Origin: a virus
Virus record (IMG/VR): IMGVR_UViG_3300045988_020417
Coordinates: 1-35,443 of that record
Length of the DNA: 35,443 nt
Direction: 5' to 3' (one strand)
Shown here: in pieces, positions 2,770-32,649 of the stretch
Layout: each line of letters starts with the position of its first letter
Position numbering within the stretch: position 1 is the first letter of the stretch
Made by a program: the position numbers and the translations under genes
The notes under the pieces: generated by a model
Told to the model about the DNA's origin: nothing
The model's database searches: none
Seen by the model: the letters and a program-made list of their open reading frames with translations, nothing else

Positions 2770-3207
2770 GTGGACGCAGTAGTGCGAGCAACGAGATATT
2801 TCAGCCCAATTGATCATGACAAAACAATTGAAAACGCCAAAGAGGTCTTGGGGAACTACTGGCATCACAAGCGGATCGCTCAACGTACCAAAATAGCGCT
2901 CAGAAGCCCCGTGATGGACGGCATGCCCAAGTCACCTAGCTATGGCAACAAAGCCGAGGACAAGCTCGTATCGCACGCTGACGAGCTGTACTATATAGCG
3001 TGCTGTGAAGGTGCTATTGAATCTCTGGAATCAGAGAATCATCGGCTTATACTAACAAGCTGTTACTTAACCAAACGATATAGTGACAAGCAAATAATGG
3101 ACAAGCTGTTTTTATCGAAAGCCCAGTATTATCGAACAAAACGTGAAGCGCTAATTGCATTCGCTGAGATTTGCCCATTAGTTGAAATCGAGATGAGACC
3201 TTTGTGA
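2770..3207 (+). CDS. ArpU-family late transcriptional regulator (alternative GTG start at 2782)
   Basis: About 140 aa, upstream of the packaging genes. C-terminal sigma-like segment LSKAQYYRTKREALIAFAE. AAGGAG at 2765..2770 favours GTG 2782 as the start. Confidence 0.65.
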   Translation: MDAVVRATRYFSPIDHDKTIENAKEVLGNYWHHKRIAQRTKIALRSPVMDGMPKSPSYGNKAEDKLVSHADELYYIACCEGAIESLESENHRLILTSCYLTKRYSDKQIMDKLFLSKAQYYRTKREALIAFAEICPLVEIEMRPL

Positions 3208-3316
3208 GACATTTCAACTATTTTTCCGTCATATGATGGTATTGTGCCAAAGGTGAGAAACCTGAGACACCGCATTTTTCCTCCGAGCCTCAGTTATGAT
3301 AAAGCTGTGGCAAGGC

Positions 3317-3372
3317 GTGGCAAATGAGGACTGGCTGAGATAGTCAGGCGGGTTCGATTCCCGCATGCCACA
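3317..3372 (+). ncRNA. tRNA-like element 1 (acceptor stem + T-arm, no D-arm)
   Basis: T-arm GCGGG-TTCGATT-CCCGC (3348..3364). GTGGCA(3317-3322) pairs with TGCCAC(3366-3371). Central hairpin CTGGC-TGAGATA-GTCAG has a non-canonical loop. There is no variable region or D-arm. Confidence 0.5.
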
Positions 3373-3590
3373 TTTCACCCGTGAAGGTCTGTGACGGAGT
3401 AGCTACCGTCACTACGTCCCGATACGCCTACCATGACGATGAGTAGCAGGGTGAACTTATATACCTCCTTAGAGGCTGAGCTTCCCGGTTGAGCGGGACC
3501 AGCCACGGCAGGTCGTGGCACAGTTCTTTGTCCAGTTCAGCGACCGGACACAGCTTGCGATGACCCCATCTGACACTGGGAGAGCGAGCG

Positions 3591-3648
3591 GCAACCGGAG
3601 GATTAACTTTGTGGCCTCTATTATCGGGTTCGACTCCCGGCGGTTGCG
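3591..3648 (+). ncRNA. tRNA-like element 2 (7-bp acceptor stem + T-arm, no D-arm)
   Basis: GCAACCG(3591-3597) pairs perfectly with CGGTTGC(3641-3647). T-arm CGGG-TTCGACT-CCCG (3625..3639). The 26-nt middle part has only a GAGG/CCTC stem. Confidence 0.5.
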
Positions 3649-6136: not shown

Positions 6137-6607
6137 ATGGTTGAAAAAATCAAAAGTTTGCAGAATTTTTTAAAGTTACCTGAGAAACAGAAAAAAGCCG
6201 TTATGTTGCTGTTTTCAGGGGAAATGACGCAGGCAAAAATAGCGGAAGAAGTTAATGTTTCAGCGACAACGTTATCCACTTGGAAAACACACGAAGATTT
6301 TAGACGTGGGCAAGATGAATATACACGGTTTATGCTGCATGATTTATCATCTTCGGCCGTACTAACCATGAAAGAGCTATTGAATGCCAAGTCTGAAATG
6401 GTTCGATATAATGCCGCTTCATACATCATCGAAAAGGCTTTGAGCAGTGGTGACGAATTGAATAAACAACAGGCTCGCAAATCAAAGGCTGAGGCTGACA
6501 TCATGGAGGCCAAGGCCAAACGTGAAACTAGCGGAGACGGAACAGATGCTGTTAACGTCAATATCATCGTGCCAAATAGCAACGAGGAGCAGAAATATAA
6601 TGAGTAA
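6137..6607 (+). CDS. terS: Terminase small subunit (HTH type)
   Basis: 156 aa with the HTH MTQAKIAEEVNVSATTLSTWK. It sits directly upstream of TerL and overlaps its start. Confidence 0.65.
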   Translation: MVEKIKSLQNFLKLPEKQKKAVMLLFSGEMTQAKIAEEVNVSATTLSTWKTHEDFRRGQDEYTRFMLHDLSSSAVLTMKELLNAKSEMVRYNAASYIIEKALSSGDELNKQQARKSKAEADIMEAKAKRETSGDGTDAVNVNIIVPNSNEEQKYNE

Positions 6608-6930
6608 TATTACAATCGATATACCTAAAATCGTTTCACCTGCTTATTATCCGATGTTCACGAGCAATGCACGTTATCTCTCGTACAAGGGCAGTCGTGG
6701 ATCTGGCAAGTCAGTGGCCGCGGCTCGTAAGGTGATTGTGGATATACTACTTCACCCTTACGTCAACTGGCTGGTTATCCGGCAATACTTCGGTACACAC
6801 AAAGATTCCACTTTCGCAACCATAAAGAAGGCCGCAAGCGATCTCGGGGTATATGACCTTTTCAAGTTCACAGTGTCACCGCTTGAGATAACATATAAGC
6901 CTACTGGTCAAAAGATATTTTTCCGTGGGT
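6600..6930 (+). CDS. terL: Terminase large subunit, exon 1 (Walker A ATPase part)
   Basis: GAGGAG RBS. YKGSRGSGKS is the Walker A motif. Homology-like sequence ends at IFFRG, and the remaining ORF tail (TNQPTLNLINSVKG*) is intron read-through. Confidence 0.85.
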
Positions 6931-7035
6931 TAACAAACCAGCCCACGTTAAACCTCATTAATTCGGTTAAAGGCTAAACAGGCTAAGCTGTAGTTCAGAC
7001 CGAGCGTAGTTCTAGTATACAGCAGCCCCGGAAAA

Positions 7036-7044
7036 TGATATAAT
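7036..7044 (+). promoter_or_regulatory. Extended -10 element (TGaTATAAT) upstream of the GIY-YIG gene
   Basis: Exact TGnTATAAT match, 27 nt before ATG 7072. Confidence 0.45.
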
Positions 7045-7071
7045 GTCATTAGTGAAGGGGATGGAATTATC

Positions 7072-7557
7072 ATGTATTTAGTTTATTTATTTCAAGAAAA
7101 GTCAACAGGCAATGTTATTTACGTCGGTAGCACATCGAGAATGCAAGCACGATTGAAAGAACATAAGCGTGCGTTAGCCACTGGTAAAGGCGCTAGTAGA
7201 ATCCATAGATATATGAACTCTAAAAATTTAAAGCTGGTAAATGATGTTAGGATTATCTGGGAGTATAGTACTGATAACATGGAAGACATGCTAAAACATG
7301 AAGAATCAGAATATTACAAATGGCTACCAGCTGGTAATTTAATGAACGAGCGGCCTGGTGAAGATAGAAATGGATCTAACAATCCTAAGGCACGCGCTGT
7401 GCGTTGTTTTAACGATGGTAGAGTGTTTAAAACAATTTCTAGTGCTGCACGATATTATGGCATAACCCGACATGGAATTGATGATGTTATAAATGGACGC
7501 CGCAAGCAAACAGGACGCCGCAAGACTGGAATTGAATATAAATTTGAACGCGTGTAA
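7072..7557 (+). CDS. GIY-YIG homing endonuclease (intron-encoded)
   Basis: The N-terminus YLVYLFQEKSTGNVIYVGST...RLKEHK is a GIY-YIG module. The C-terminal repeat-like DNA-binding segment is AVRCFNDGRVFKTISSAARYYGITRHGI. Confidence 0.85.
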   Translation: MYLVYLFQEKSTGNVIYVGSTSRMQARLKEHKRALATGKGASRIHRYMNSKNLKLVNDVRIIWEYSTDNMEDMLKHEESEYYKWLPAGNLMNERPGEDRNGSNNPKARAVRCFNDGRVFKTISSAARYYGITRHGIDDVINGRRKQTGRRKTGIEYKFERV

Positions 7558-7702
7558 CGACTATCGAAAGCACCTTAAATGGTGAACGAGTAGAGTAAGC
7601 CCCAAGTGGGGTTGAAAGATGAGGGGCGAAAGCCAAGATATAGTCTGAACTTTATGGAAACATAGAGAGATATGTCGGGAACGGACATATCGTAACATAT
7701 TG

Positions 7703-8844
7703 TGGACGATGCGCTCAAGATAACCTCGATAACTACAGATGTCGGGGTTATTTGCCGTGAATGGATAGAGGAGGCTTACGAATTAAAGTCAAAATCGGCT
7801 TTTGAAACCGTTGAAGAATCCTTACGAGGCATTCTTCCTGATCCTCAAGGATTCTATCAGACCGTGATCACATTCAACCCGTGGAGCGACAGAAGCTGGC
7901 TTAAGAGTGAGTTCTTCGATGAAGATACGCGGAGACCCAACACGCGCAGTTTCACGACCACATACACGGATAACCCATGGTTAAATGATGACTACGTTGA
8001 AACCCTCAAGGACATGGTTAAGCGCAATCCTAACCGTGCCCGTGTCGCTGTATATGGAGACTGGGGCATTGCAGAAGGTCTTGTGTTTGATGGGCTGTTC
8101 GAGCAGCGCGATTTCAGTATGGAAGAGATAGCCACGTTGCCAAAAGCAGTCGGCCTTGACTTCGGTTTCAAGCATGACCCGACAGCGGGTGAGTTTATAG
8201 CCATTGATCAGCAGAACAGAGTCGTGTATATCTATGACGAGTTCTATCAGCAGGGGATGCTGACACAGCAGATTGCAGAGGCAATTGGGCAACACAAAGG
8301 CTATGGCTTGCAGATAACGGCTGATAGCGCCGAACAGAGGCTCATATCTGAGCTTTCAGGTGTATATGGTGTGCCAAACATCGTAGGCGCTGGCAAGGGA
8401 AAAGACAGCGTCTCACAGGGTATTCAATACATGCAGTCGTATCATTTCGTTGTTCATCCCCGTGTCAAGGGACTGTTGGAAGAATTCAACACTTACGTTT
8501 ATTCCAAAGACAAGTTTGACAACTGGACGAACACGCCTGAAGACGCTAATAACCATGCCTGCTTGACTGGTGATACATTGGTTGAAACTATTAACGGTAG
8601 CAAGCCAATCAGTGAGCTAGTAGGAAAAACTGGTAACGTTTATAGTCTTGACGCTGAAACTGGGAATGTAGTAGTTGATGAGTTTAGCAACGTATGCAAG
8701 ACAAGAAAACAAGCGGCAGTGTTTGAAATCGAATTAGAGGATGGGCGAACAGTCAAAGCAACAGCCGACCATAAGTTTCTTACCAAAGACGGTTGGAAAG
8801 AGTTAGCCGATTTAACAGAAGATGATGAGATTATCTCAATTTAA
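7703..8844 (+). CDS. terL: Terminase large subunit exon 2 (to 8559) fused to an N-terminal intein fragment (8560..8841)
   Basis: Walker B-like ICREWIEEA and nuclease-domain sequence run up to PEDANNHA. Intein blocks A (CLTGDTLVET) and B (TADHKFLT) follow, then a TAA stop. Confidence 0.8.
8560..8841 (+). mobile_element. Intein N-fragment (94 aa), terminated by a stop codon
   Basis: Cys1 at 8560; CLTGDTLV...GRTVKATADHKFLTKDGW. The frame closes at 8842..8844. Confidence 0.75.
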
Positions 8845-8865
8845 TGCGCCAAGATACTCCATGCA

Positions 8866-8874
8866 TGGTATAAT
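8866..8874 (+). promoter_or_regulatory. Extended -10 element (TGgTATAAT) upstream of the HNH gene
   Basis: Exact TGnTATAAT, followed by AGGAG (8882-8886) and ATG 8895. Confidence 0.45.
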
Positions 8875-8894
8875 GTATGTTAGGAGATGATTTT

Positions 8895-9530
8895 ATGAAA
8901 TCCATCACTGTAGACGGCTACCGTTTCGTAAAAGATGATCAAAGCGGTTATTGGCAATGCAACCAGTTCATTGCAAAAGAAGGAAAGCCGAAACGATTGC
9001 ACCGCTACGTCTGGGAAAAGTACCACGGTACAATAAAGCCCGGTTATGACGTCCACCACATTGACAAAAACAAAGACAACAACGATATTTCCAATTTGGT
9101 CTGTCTTTCTTCACATGACCACCAGCATTTGCACGGTGTTGAAAAGGTTAAAAACAACCATGAGTGGTTCGCTGAGTTTCACCAGCGTGGTATTGAATTA
9201 GCGCCTAAATGGCACGCTTCTGCTGAAGGACACGAGTGGCATTTAAAGCACTTCGAGGCGATGAAAGATAAACTGTACGCCAAAAAAGAATTTGTATGTG
9301 AACAATGTGGGAAAACATTTTCAGCACAAGATAACGGACACAACCGTTTCTGCTCCAACGCTTGCAAGTCAAAATGGCGTAGAAATAACCACATTGATGA
9401 TGTAGAAAGGACGTGTGTAATTTGTGGCACTAAATTCAGCGCAAACAAATATTCAAAAAAAGAAACCTGCTCACGTAGTTGTGCCTCAAAACTCTCGTTT
9501 GCAAAAAGGCGTGAAAATAAAGTCAATTAG
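8895..9530 (+). CDS. Free-standing HNH homing endonuclease between the two intein halves
   Basis: It has its own RBS and start, in a different frame from the intein. HNH core HHIDKNKDNNDISNLVCLSSHDHQHLH. C-terminal Cys-rich zinc-finger repeats (CEQCGKTF..C, CVICGTKF..C). Confidence 0.85.
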   Translation: MKSITVDGYRFVKDDQSGYWQCNQFIAKEGKPKRLHRYVWEKYHGTIKPGYDVHHIDKNKDNNDISNLVCLSSHDHQHLHGVEKVKNNHEWFAEFHQRGIELAPKWHASAEGHEWHLKHFEAMKDKLYAKKEFVCEQCGKTFSAQDNGHNRFCSNACKSKWRRNNHIDDVERTCVICGTKFSANKYSKKETCSRSCASKLSFAKRRENKVN

Positions 9531-9723
9531 TTTTTCCGGATATGAAGACGTTTATGACATGTATGTAAAGAACCACCATAACTTTGCTGTTAATGGTGGT
9601 TTTATTGTGCATAATTGTGACGCTTTGAGGTATGCGATGGAGCCGTTCACGTTCAGAACTGCCGGCCATTACATGAGCAACCAAGAACGCATTCAGACAA
9701 TCAAAAATTTAGGATTGGGGTGA
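9511..9723 (+). CDS. terL: Intein C-fragment (9511..9615, 35 aa) plus TerL C-extein (9616..9723); start uncertain (GTG 9511 or GTG 9424)
   Basis: (V/M)KIKSISFSGYEDVYDMYVKNHHNFAVNGGFIVHN followed by CDALRYAMEPF. Intein blocks F and G end in HN, then a +1 Cys. The extein carries the conserved terminase D-A-x-R-Y motif. Confidence 0.7.
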   Translation: MKIKSISFSGYEDVYDMYVKNHHNFAVNGGFIVHNCDALRYAMEPFTFRTAGHYMSNQERIQTIKNLGLG

Positions 9724-30748: not shown

Positions 30749-31462
30749 ATGCGAACATCAGAGAATATAAACGAAATTGCTAAGGCAATCAACTCATTTA
30801 GGCAAGCTGTCAAGCAACCGACAAAAGATGGTGACAACCCGTTTCTAAAGTCTCGTTACGTTCAACTCGAGGGTGTCGTTGGTGCGATTGACCACGCGCT
30901 TCCTGATACGGGACTGGCATACACGCAAGACGTAGTCAGCGAAGGGAACCAAGTGAGCGTAACGACCTTGATTTTACACTCCAGCGGCCAATTCATCGAA
31001 CTTGGACCCCTGTCAGTCCCAGTTGCCAAAAATGACGCTCAGGCTTTCGGTTCCGCTGAGACTTACGCACGTCGATACTCGCTAACAGCGGCCTTTGGTA
31101 TCACATCTGACCCTGATGATGACGGTACAGCTGCCGGTATAAACCCTCCAAAGGCACAACCAAGACGCGTAAATAAGCCAAATAGTGGCCTCGATCACGC
31201 AACAGTCAAGGAAGTCAAGACACTAATTATGCAACAATTCAACAAAATGCCAGCAGTCAACAAAAACGGTGACCCGAAGCCGAAGACAGTGAACGAGCTT
31301 GCTGAAATCTGGCTCGGCCTCGCTAACGCAAAATTCGGAAGCAAAGCGACCAGCATTGAGACGCTGACACCGGCAGCCGCGGCAGGTATTGAGGGCTTGT
31401 TAAAGAATGAAATTAAGAAACTAGCGGGTGTCGCAAATGAAAATAAACGGCAGACTCGATAA
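30749..31462 (+). CDS. erf: ERF-family single-strand annealing recombinase
   Basis: NPFLKSRYVQLEGVV...AQAFGSAETYARRYSL is the ERF signature. Confidence 0.8.
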   Translation: MRTSENINEIAKAINSFRQAVKQPTKDGDNPFLKSRYVQLEGVVGAIDHALPDTGLAYTQDVVSEGNQVSVTTLILHSSGQFIELGPLSVPVAKNDAQAFGSAETYARRYSLTAAFGITSDPDDDGTAAGINPPKAQPRRVNKPNSGLDHATVKEVKTLIMQQFNKMPAVNKNGDPKPKTVNELAEIWLGLANAKFGSKATSIETLTPAAAAGIEGLLKNEIKKLAGVANENKRQTR

Positions 31463-32099
31463 GCTGTCCGGAGATAAAATTACCATCACCGCAGACAGCT
31501 CTGTGAGCTTGTATAAGCTGTCTAAGCTTGCCGCGGGTAAATCACCATCGGTTGAGTTAGAAGTCGAGGACGGGCGCCATATAAGCCCGGATCAACGCAA
31601 AAAGATATTTGCACTGATGCGCGACATCTCCGACTGGAACGGTGACACGGTGGACATGATCGAATGCCTCATGAAGTCATATACGCGTGAGATTTTTGCA
31701 ATTGAACCATATTCACTGAGTGACTGTTCGATGACAACTGCCAGCAACATGATCTACACGATCTTAGAGTTTTGCTTCCGCAACGATGTGCCATTCAAGA
31801 CGAAGACGTGGGACATGATACCCAACGACTATGCACGCCAATGGTTCTGCCTCCGTTTCCGAAAGTGTGTTATCTGTGGAAAGCCCGCTGACTTGGCACA
31901 CTTCGAGGCTGTCGGTATGGGGCGCAACAGAAATAAGATAGACGAAACAAAGTTCAGGTACATGAGCCTGTGCCGCATTCACCACGTGGAGCAACATACA
32001 ATCGGAATTGAGACATTTATTCAGAAATACCACATCAGGCCAGTAAAATTGACGGCTGACGACCTTAAACGTATTCAGCCGCGTTACAACACAAAGTAA
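31428..32099 (+). CDS. HNH-motif nuclease-like protein (alternative start ATG 31437)
   Basis: C-terminal CVICGKPADLAHFEAVGMGRNRNKID...LCRIHHVEQH. Confidence 0.45.
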   Translation: MSQMKINGRLDKLSGDKITITADSSVSLYKLSKLAAGKSPSVELEVEDGRHISPDQRKKIFALMRDISDWNGDTVDMIECLMKSYTREIFAIEPYSLSDCSMTTASNMIYTILEFCFRNDVPFKTKTWDMIPNDYARQWFCLRFRKCVICGKPADLAHFEAVGMGRNRNKIDETKFRYMSLCRIHHVEQHTIGIETFIQKYHIRPVKLTADDLKRIQPRYNTK

Positions 32100-32112
32100 A
32101 GGAGTGTTAAGC

Positions 32113-32649
32113 ATGGATAAAGAAGTCTGGAAGGACGTTAAAGGCTACGAAGGATTATATCAGGTTAGTAACCTCGGCAGGGTGAGGAGCCTTGACCGAG
32201 TTAGCACGCAAGGGGAGCGCCTAAAAGGTAAGGTGCTCACCGGTGGCTTAAACCGTGACGGATATCTCGCGGTTGTCTTGTGTCGAAGTGGTGGTCAAAA
32301 GAATTATTTCATTCACCGCCTTGTTGCTCAAGCGTTCTTAGAGAACCCCGACAACTTGCCTGAAGTAAACCACAAAAATGAAGATAAGACAGACAATACA
32401 GTTGCCAATCTTGAGTGGTGTTCACATCGCTACAATATGAACTATGGCACTCACAACGAACGTGCGGCAAAAGGGCACGAAAAGCCCGTCTATGTCATAA
32501 CTGCTTCGGGACACCGCTACTATTTTAGCAGTATCAAGAAAGCGGCGGCGCTTCTCGGACTATACCATAGTGCCGTGTCTGACTGCCTAAATGGCAGGCA
32601 TAAACATCACCATGGTTTCTCTTTTGAGTGGGCGGAACAACACGCCTAA
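32113..32649 (+). CDS. Free-standing HNH homing endonuclease (NUMOD4 + HNH_3 type)
   Basis: AAGGAG RBS. EVWKDVKGYEGLYQVSNLGRVRS is NUMOD4. IHRLVAQAFLENPDNLPEVNHKNEDKTDNTVANLEW is the HNH core. Confidence 0.85.
   Translation: MDKEVWKDVKGYEGLYQVSNLGRVRSLDRVSTQGERLKGKVLTGGLNRDGYLAVVLCRSGGQKNYFIHRLVAQAFLENPDNLPEVNHKNEDKTDNTVANLEWCSHRYNMNYGTHNERAAKGHEKPVYVITASGHRYYFSSIKKAAALLGLYHSAVSDCLNGRHKHHHGFSFEWAEQHA

Follow-up and report, generated by a model that had tools for sequence, protein, structure and literature searches.

A probable mobile group I intron carrying a GIY-YIG endonuclease gene in a phage terL gene

Terminases are a typical target of introns (PMC3984707), and group I introns with homing endonuclease genes in the phage terminase gene terL are already established (PMC3984707, PMC11878797). 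Among the Bastillevirinae, 5 of 52 terL genes are split, splicing has been shown experimentally, and the introns carry VSR-like or HNH open reading frames (ORFs; PMC11878797); a terL intron of phage JCL1032 is also cited in PMC6669764. Here we analyse a stretch of viral DNA of 35,443 nucleotides (nt; IMG/VR record IMGVR_UViG_3300045988_020417, positions 1 to 35,443, hereafter the window) in which terL is interrupted at positions 6931-7702 by what is very probably a mobile group I intron with its own GIY-YIG endonuclease gene. Lactobacillus phages LL-H and JCL1032 and Twort-like phages also have group I introns in terL, often with a homing endonuclease gene. The window element resembles these and the Bastillevirinae introns in being a terL intron of a Gram-positive phage, a setting in which a homing endonuclease gene is often carried; it differs from the Bastillevirinae introns in encoding a GIY-YIG enzyme rather than a VSR-like or HNH one. 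In a collection of 50,697 phage genomes we found no nucleotide match between it and LL-H, JCL1032, Bastillevirinae or Twort-like phages; there, 'Aeromonas' phage AS1 (PV831789) and Lactobacillus phage LBR48 (GU967410) alone share the intron or endonuclease. Unlike the other Firmicutes-phage terL introns, those of this lineage always lie, in the GIY-YIG copies examined, at the FFRG/LDD codon of a Terminase_3-type TerL. The AS1 and LBR48 introns have the same insertion codon, the same ribozyme architecture, a -10 box upstream and an endonuclease of 51-62% amino acid (aa) identity; unlike the window, neither phage has a split intein, and their records annotate only a split terminase, as two terL fragments around an endonuclease or hypothetical gene.

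Another described system that invites comparison is the td intron of phage T4, a subgroup IA2 group I intron with the GIY-YIG enzyme I-TevI. Both are group I introns in an essential phage gene with an endonuclease ORF in a peripheral loop (P6 in the window), both have P7.1 and P7.2, and both enzymes have an N-terminal GIY-YIG domain; the C-terminal helix-turn-helix-like DNA-binding module of I-TevI may have a counterpart in the window enzyme, to judge by a profile match below its cut-off and by eye. A further likeness, predicted for the window, is an intron-internal promoter combined with an RNA helix that hides the endonuclease ribosome-binding site in read-through transcripts; in T4, such a promoter and an occluded site were reportedly described by Gott et al. 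in 1988. The two systems differ in that the host gene here is terL and not td, the enzyme has 161 rather than 245 aa, P2 is missing, the predicted promoter is not a T4 late promoter but of a type used by host sigma-70/sigma-A, and there is no detectable similarity to I-TevI at the level of nucleotides or of PDB sequences. A promoter and hairpin ahead of phage homing-endonuclease genes is a general motif (PMC2677866), and the same study described fractured genes with GIY-YIG and Vsr-like endonucleases, those with HNH enzymes being predicted only (Dassa et al. 2009, PMC2677866). The terL gene of the window likewise contains a split intein, with halves of 94 and 35 aa that fall in the ranges reported there, and a promoter-like element and hairpin before an endonuclease gene; unlike those fractured genes it has an HNH gene, and the same terL also has a group I intron.

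The terL reading frame and related alleles

Read without splicing, the terL frame that starts at 6600 runs through …KIFFRG into unrelated sequence and reaches a stop codon at 6975-6977. TerL-like sequence is back at 7705 (DDALKITS), the intron ending at G7702. The gene was divided as follows:

6600..6930, plus strand: terL exon 1, from the Walker A region to …IFFRG and base 1 of a Leu codon (positions 3-97 of the Pfam Terminase_3 profile; once spliced, it aligns to R3.3 TerL with no gap).
6931..7702, plus strand: putative group I intron of 772 nt, IA-like, without P2 and with P7.1 and P7.2 between P7 and the 3' strand of P3 (covariation in seven homologous copies, intron-less alleles R3.3 and BL3, partial RF00028 match).
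7703..8559, plus strand: terL exon 2, ending where the intein is inserted (…NNHA; Pfam Terminase_3 positions 87-200 and Terminase_3C; alignment to R3.3).

T6930 is both the last base of exon 1 and the first base of terL codon 111, and joining 6930 to 7703 yields CGT GGG T/TG GAC GAT (R-G-L-D-D) in frame. The spliced and intein-free TerL has 431 aa and aligns over 428 aa, with 81% identity and 0 gaps, to the uninterrupted TerL of Lacticaseibacillus phage R3.3, the junction reading FFRG-L-DDALKITS in the window and FFRG-M-DKPLAVTS in R3.3. TerL thus has no sequence equivalent to 6931-7702. A preliminary description of this DNA had proposed that excision of 6931..7702 restores the terL frame and had named alignment to uninterrupted TerL homologues as a check; the FFRG-L-DDALK join and the R3.3 alignment bear the proposal out, and its placement of group I splice sites between 6930 and 6931 and between 7702 and 7703 agrees with the comparative evidence. 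Intron-less terL alleles are present in R3.3 and in Brochothrix phage BL3. The last exon base is U in all intron-bearing alleles, where it belongs to a split Leu codon (UUG or UUA), and the empty alleles have AUG or GCU at this position.

By blastn, the whole element recurs in AS1 at ~65% identity, and in LBR48 the 3' core only is matched; both are isolated phages, which need TerL. An insertion at the same terL codon is found in these two and in loci L028, L132, L154/155, L156/157 and L158; besides AS1 and LBR48, the carriers of such insertions include a prophage of Bacillus thuringiensis, a staphylococcal-type phage and metagenome contigs. A search of viral contigs with the 14-mer AGCCCACGTTAAAC gave matches of which, among those listed, nearly all were due to chance, and it was replaced by a gapped P1 pattern. 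With this pattern of P1 and guide we located copies resembling that of LBR48, both in viral contigs and in the genome of a Levilactobacillus fuyuanensis, and, in metagenomes, two informative loci. The first, L136 (VOFD01001324.1, 3166-3477), is from a near relative of the window phage and shares with it the intron and its site, but has lost the endonuclease gene by deletion and is free of the intein: the insertion measures ~312 nt, the last ~75 nt of the endonuclease gene are left, P6 is intact and the core is near-identical to that of the window. The second, L138 (UZAT01210134.1, reverse strand, 16-765), has the same ribozyme backbone from P3 to P9.1 with an HNH-type ORF in the P6 loop, and is inserted at the Walker A codons (GG/YGAGKT) of a different terminase family, which indicates that ribozyme and endonuclease have been shuffled. 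Close relatives therefore present three allele states, namely empty (R3.3), intron without endonuclease gene (L136) and full (the window), a series that fits a cycle of homing, decay and loss.

In a test for co-conversion, exon identity around the site was raised in comparisons with AS1 and LBR48; the site is also a conserved TerL motif. A comparison bearing on horizontal transfer gave similar divergence for TerL and for the endonuclease, with identities of about 40-51% for both, and hence no sign for or against transfer. Spread between phyla by way of 'Aeromonas' phage AS1 is not claimed here: the TerL and portal of AS1 are 76% and 61% like those of the window, and its GC content is 39-47%. 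This likeness to the Lacticaseibacillus-type window phage, together with the local GC content, makes the Aeromonas salmonicida host label of AS1 doubtful. We note that in LBR48 the frame of exon 2 shifts ~150 nt after the intron (about 2770-2790), where translation runs into a stop, the annotated coding sequence (2781-3614) being in another frame; this may reflect a sequencing error or a further feature.

Ribozyme fold

The predicted fold comprises the following elements:

6924..6947, plus strand: P1, exon strand 6924-6930 (CGTGGGT) with guide 6941-6947 (GCCCACG), U6930·G6941 at the splice site (compensatory changes; U·G in 7 of 7 copies).
6938..6940, plus strand: P10 strand CCA, partner TGG 7703-7705 (CCA:UGG versus CUA:UAG).
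6953..6958, plus strand: P3 5' strand, partner 7619-7624 (3 of 6 pairs compensatory, 97.6% of cells paired; obtained independently from RNAalifold).
6963..7003, plus strand: P4 (6963-6968 with 6998-7003) around P5 (about 6972-6981 with 6988-6995; RNAalifold and pair counts).
7005..7012, plus strand: P6 5' strand (7005-7006 and 7009-7012), partners 7546-7549 and 7551-7552, with the endonuclease gene in the P6 loop.
7559..7563, plus strand: P7 5' strand GACTA (the true R element), partner TAGTC 7641-7645, directly after the ORF stop codon (invariant in 7 of 7).
7571..7613, plus strand: P7.1 (7571-7574 with 7581-7584) and P7.2 (7598-7603 with 7608-7613).
7619..7645, plus strand: P3 3' strand (7619-7624), P8 (GGC-GAAA-GCC, 7625-7634), then J8/7 and the P7 3' strand (S element, 7635-7645).
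7650..7702, plus strand: P9 (7650-7656 with 7661-7667, GAAA loop), P9.1 (7669-7676 with 7684-7691) and terminal G7702.

The helices follow one another in the order P1-P3-P4-P5-P6-P7-P7.1-P7.2-P3'-P8-P7'-P9, with a P3/P7 pseudoknot and a P4-P6 domain. The lack of P2 together with P7.1 and P7.2 between P7 and P3' suggests the architecture of subgroup IA phage introns. Covariation was assessed in a MAFFT alignment of seven real cores with the ORF deleted (window, AS1, LBR48, L138, L154, L156 and L158). From these, RNAalifold yields P1, P3, P4, P5, P7.2, P8, P9 and P9.1, with P3 as the long-range helix around P4-P6, and 30 of 58 pairs show compensatory changes; with the pseudoknotted P7 and P10 included, standard pairs make up 94.7% of cells, and compensatory change is seen in 31 of the 58 pairs. 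None of 500 shuffles matched that score, and when the partners were slid by 1-3 columns just 6-12 compensatory pairs were left.

The changes are distributed over most of the fold. Compensatory pairs number 2 in P4, which is 100% paired, and 3 in P5; P8 is compensatory in 6 of 6 pairs, P7.2 in 5 of 6 and P9.1 in 7 of 8, and P9 is 100% paired. The inner helix of P6 differs completely by lineage yet always pairs (GTTC/GAAC, CCTT/AAGG, CCT/AGG, CCCAAATA/TATTTGGG and ATTAAT/ATTAAT). P7.1 is a variable hairpin, missing in AS1 and longer in LBR48, L154 and L156. The position of P7, between P6 and P3', is required by the covariation of P3 and P6, and a more distant intron (L126) has GACTG/CAGTC at P7. 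At the 5' splice site the guide tracks synonymous changes in the exon, three P1 pairs covarying with them: CGUGGGU/GCCCACG in the window, CGAGGGU/GCCCUCG in L154, AGAGGAU/GUUCUCU in L156 and AGAGGGU/GCUCUCU in L158. At the 3' splice site, P10 is CUA:UAG in LBR48 and L156 as against CCA:UGG, and a G directly precedes the 3' exon in 7 of 7 copies, all of which end in …TG. The S element AAGATATAGTC occupies 7635-7645, hairpins with a GAAA cap are seen at 7625-7634 and 7650-7667, and Rfam aligns J8/7-P7-P9 to its consensus, AAGAUAUAGUC (conserved J8/7 and S element) being matched at high posterior probability. A7557, the bulged C7558 and G7559, facing C7645-U7646, have the features of a guanosine site as judged from the letters alone. 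Several boundary features named in the preliminary description recur in the comparison: the P1 with its U-G wobble, which covaries with the exon, the terminal G at 7702, kept in all seven copies, and the covarying CCA of P10. The S-like element and the GNRA-capped hairpins that it named are present as well, two of the hairpins with GAAA loops.

Features of this intron also appear elsewhere. In Vibrio phage 1.193.O (MG592562, 2317-3680), three group I introns without ORFs interrupt the terminase gene; they score 75-84 bits with Rfam and are ~80% identical to the P7-P9 region of the window intron. An exon end and guide of the form GTGGGT/…AGCCCACGTTAA is common to other group I introns, in the anaerobic ribonucleotide reductase gene nrdD (L124, L125, L142, L145 and L149), in a tail or structural gene (L126, L130 and L141, of which L126 and L130 are an ORF-less and GIY-YIG pair) and in a tape-measure-like gene (L127).

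Endonuclease gene and competing explanations

Within the P6 loop we recognize the following elements:

7072..7557, plus strand: GIY-YIG homing endonuclease gene, 161 aa (Pfam GIY-YIG, PHROG 314, homologues between Terminase_3 fragments).
7016..7044, plus strand: promoter-like element, TATACA, a 17 nt spacer and TG-n-TATAAT (extended -10 TGATATAAT, 7036-7044; promoter scan 10/12 with TG).
7026..7060, plus strand: predicted helix of CCCC (7026-7029) with GGGG (7057-7060) that would mask the endonuclease Shine-Dalgarno sequence in read-through RNA, the -10 box lying between its strands (ViennaRNA).

The P6 3' strand is supplied by the last 12 nt of the endonuclease ORF, whose stop codon is in J6/7. 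The ORF product matches Pfam PF01541 (GIY-YIG) over residues 1-66 with 26.8 bits (cut-off 22.6) and PHROG 314, 'homing endonuclease', at 4.8e-8, and the motifs VYLF…IYVGS…R27…H31 are kept in three homologues. At the C-terminus, the Pfam I-HmuI_NUMOD-like profile gives 21.3 bits, under its cut-off of 27; to the eye this part looks like the helix-turn-helix of I-TevI. A PDB sequence search with the endonuclease gave no significant match and did not recover I-TevI. The family is small, with 12 clusters among 5.8 billion proteins and, by tblastn against the 50,697 phage genomes, AS1 and LBR48 only. Homologues have 48-62% identity. In each context examined, namely the prophage of Bacillus thuringiensis, the staphylococcal-type phage and a contig from JGI, the gene is flanked by Terminase_3 fragments, in the order N-fragment, GIY-YIG gene, C-fragment.

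The preliminary description had noted a TGnTATAAT ahead of this ORF, and a -10 box indeed precedes the gene in all six GIY-YIG copies: besides TGATATAAT at 7036-7044 in the window, a -10-like box stands 23-32 nt upstream of the ATG in the five others (in L154 by eye), one of them with a full TTGACG-17-TATAAT. The sequence TGNTATAAT has three sites in the 35 kb, two of them on the plus strand, and both of these precede endonuclease genes embedded in terL, one 27 nt ahead of the GIY-YIG ATG and the other ~20 nt ahead of the probable ATG of the split-intein HNH gene. The third site (32154, minus strand) falls within an HNH ORF of the plus strand, the ORF on the minus strand matches no family, and the site was dismissed as chance. 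In ViennaRNA predictions, the probability of being unpaired is 0.00-0.02 for the GGGG in RNA spanning 7005-7092 and 0.93-0.96 for its first two G in RNA starting near 7051. A transcript that starts just after the -10 box, lacking the upstream strand, is therefore predicted to have a free Shine-Dalgarno sequence. The predicted folds of AS1 and L158 likewise occlude the sequence, and that of LBR48 does so in part. The same CCCC/GGGG pairing (7026/7057) had served as P4 in a first hand model and was dropped, homologues placing it inside the P6 loop, where it would mask the Shine-Dalgarno sequence. We note that in LBR48 (2466-2505), L154 (about 3005-3030) and L156 (about 3005-3045) the P7.1 hairpin follows the endonuclease stop codon and is followed by a T run, resembling an intrinsic terminator; the window and AS1 are without it.

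We infer from these features how catalysis, promoter use, occlusion of the Shine-Dalgarno sequence in vivo and homing may proceed, the splicing steps being those of the group I family. In the terL pre-mRNA the guide at 6941-6947 would pair with the last seven exon bases to form P1, with U6930·G6941 at its end, and a free guanosine held at the G7559-C7645 pair of P7 would attack after U6930. CCA at 6938-6940 would then hold the 3' exon (P10) while the terminal G7702 moves into the same guanosine site, and ligation would produce …CGU GGG U/UG GAC GAU… (FFRG-L-DDALK). The endonuclease gene in the P6 loop would be served by its own promoter-like element and Shine-Dalgarno sequence, the latter being locked by 7026-7029 in read-through pre-mRNA; the enzyme would come mainly from the internal transcript, and ribosomes would be kept off the ribozyme core, as compared with T4 I-TevI. 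In homing, the enzyme would cut intron-less terL near the sequence coding for FFRG/DD, and repair would copy the intron in.

This reading is backed by the restored frame, the empty alleles, a conserved and covarying fold, the ORF family and a conserved -10 box. Several results weigh against it. P7 never varies and, being invariant, is uninformative for covariation; P10 is weak in L138 and L154; and the variable hairpins in alignment A1 were extracted by hand, alignments A3 and A4 being free of this. Rfam returned no match at the gathering threshold in the window or in eight related loci, and the group I covariance search that the preliminary description had proposed as a check fell short, RF00028 giving 23.9 bits in E-value mode (E = 1e-3) in the window against a gathering score of 50. 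L136, a natural ORF-less copy, matches RF00028 by a 3' fragment only (J8/7-P7-P9, 23.5 bits). Promoter-like sites in the region are not in excess of shuffles (10 versus 8.5 in the promoter scan), Shine-Dalgarno occlusion is not predicted in the L154 or L156 folds, and the window copy is known only as a metagenome contig (ENA ERZ818680 NODE_18). Since RF00028 performs well on other phage introns (65-84 bits for Vibrio phage 1.193.O and locus L151), we attribute its shortfall to a limit of the model for this subtype, a high score with it being no defining property of the class; with Rfam below threshold, it is the covariation that has to carry the group I case.

The metagenomic origin, with no biology attached to the assembly, lends itself to another explanation, namely that the element is a group I intron by descent of which this copy does not splice, terL then being either a pseudogene within a defective element or the product of faulty assembly; the heavy burden on terL, which has a second interruption in the form of the split intein, points the same way. 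However, the window copy has every helix of the consensus fold intact, its core hardly differs from the L136 core, the reading frames of the two exons and of the endonuclease are open, a complete structural module is found on the contig, and the same kind of fractured intein occurs in a culturable phage, CL2, so that we consider a dead copy quite improbable.

Less probable still is that no splicing takes place and that a free-standing endonuclease gene divides terL into two genes, which are translated separately and whose products assemble non-covalently, as in nrdA of phage Aeh1 and split gp43. Two terL fragments and an endonuclease gene are indeed what gene callers report and what GenBank shows for AS1 and LBR48, and a GTG at 7702 is in the frame of exon 2. 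This GTG, however, has no Shine-Dalgarno sequence ahead of it and consists of the terminal G of the intron plus TG, and the ~285 nt of non-coding sequence around the ORF retain a group I fold that covaries and includes a guide that follows exon changes. Furthermore, L136 retains its 312-nt insertion after loss of the endonuclease gene, which would make no sense unless the RNA is freed of this insertion.

Finally, the core drawn in the preliminary description, in which an 8-bp long-range helix between 6993-7000 (GTTCAGAC, R-like, which we take to resemble the classical R consensus) and 7643-7650 closes the catalytic core, is scarcely tenable, for although the complementarity is real (9 bp, 6992-7000 with 7643-7651) and occurs in AS1 too, complementary 8-mers in the intron are at chance level (8 versus 4.7 ± 3.0 in shuffles), the helix is disrupted with no compensating change in 2 of 4 lineages (LBR48 and L138) and equalled in 235 of 500 shuffles, it clashes with the covariation-supported P5 3' strand, J5/4, P4 3' strand and P7 3' strand, and it leaves just 45 nt for P3-P6. 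A mobile group I intron with the fold described above and its own GIY-YIG gene hence stays, in our judgement, very probably the correct reading of 6931-7702.

A split intein in the same terL, and significance

A second interruption of terL (8560-9723) is a real split intein with a free-standing HNH gene, for which protein trans-splicing is predicted. IntN (8560-8841, 94 aa) has blocks A and B and is followed by a stop codon. The HNH gene lies in another frame, likely from ATG 8895 to 9530, with its own TGGTATAAT (8866-8874) and AGGAG. IntC most likely starts at GTG 9511 (to 9615, 35 aa), overlapping the HNH stop codon, and is followed by CDALRY… with the +1 Cys at 9616. Pfam Intein_splicing matches residues 10-93 of the ORF at 7702-8844 and residues 121-155 of the ORF at 9424-9723, and HNH_3 matches the ORF at 8877-9530 in the other frame; the intein-less alleles of R3.3 and L136 read NNHA-I-DALRY. 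In several phages, terL contains homologues of the HNH enzyme as in-frame domains of an intein. Lactobacillus phage CL2 (KR905067, 506-2734) has a terL with a split intein, a free-standing HNH gene and an unannotated IntC ORF, and BL3 (HM144386, 727-2607) has a split intein at the same terL site with an HNH remnant only; neither record carries an intein annotation. The split intein that the preliminary description had reported in the same gene is thus real, but the combination it had called unusual is less so, given the fractured terL of CL2 with the same HNH gene and the split intein of BL3 at the same site. An intron and an intein in one phage gene are already known from bnrdE of SPβ. We also note that the window phage is rich in homing-endonuclease-like genes, a third one (32104-32649; NUMOD4, HNH_3 and I-HmuI NUMOD-like) lying directly after an HNHc_6 nuclease ORF (31428-32099).

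We regard as evenly balanced the larger proposal that TerL would be made from three separately encoded pieces, through cis-splicing of a group I RNA and trans-splicing of a split-intein protein, with each interruption carrying an endonuclease gene driven by a TGnTATAAT element, the fractured gene being of the HNH type and the intron lineage being narrow, unannotated and confined to one terL codon. If this is true, production of the packaging motor depends on both splicing steps.

The current understanding of introns or homing is unchanged by these findings. New here is a small, unannotated intron lineage that is tied to one codon of Terminase_3 TerL and is missed by Rfam, and because the Rfam model misses this subtype even when the ORF is absent, similar phage introns are probably under-counted. 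For annotation, terL in the window phage, AS1, LBR48 and several prophages would be corrected to one intron-interrupted gene in place of two fragments and a stray nuclease. The relatives with full, endonuclease-deleted and empty alleles offer a clean system for the homing cycle, and the presence of both an intron and a fractured intein makes this terL a test case for the load of selfish elements that an essential late gene tolerates.

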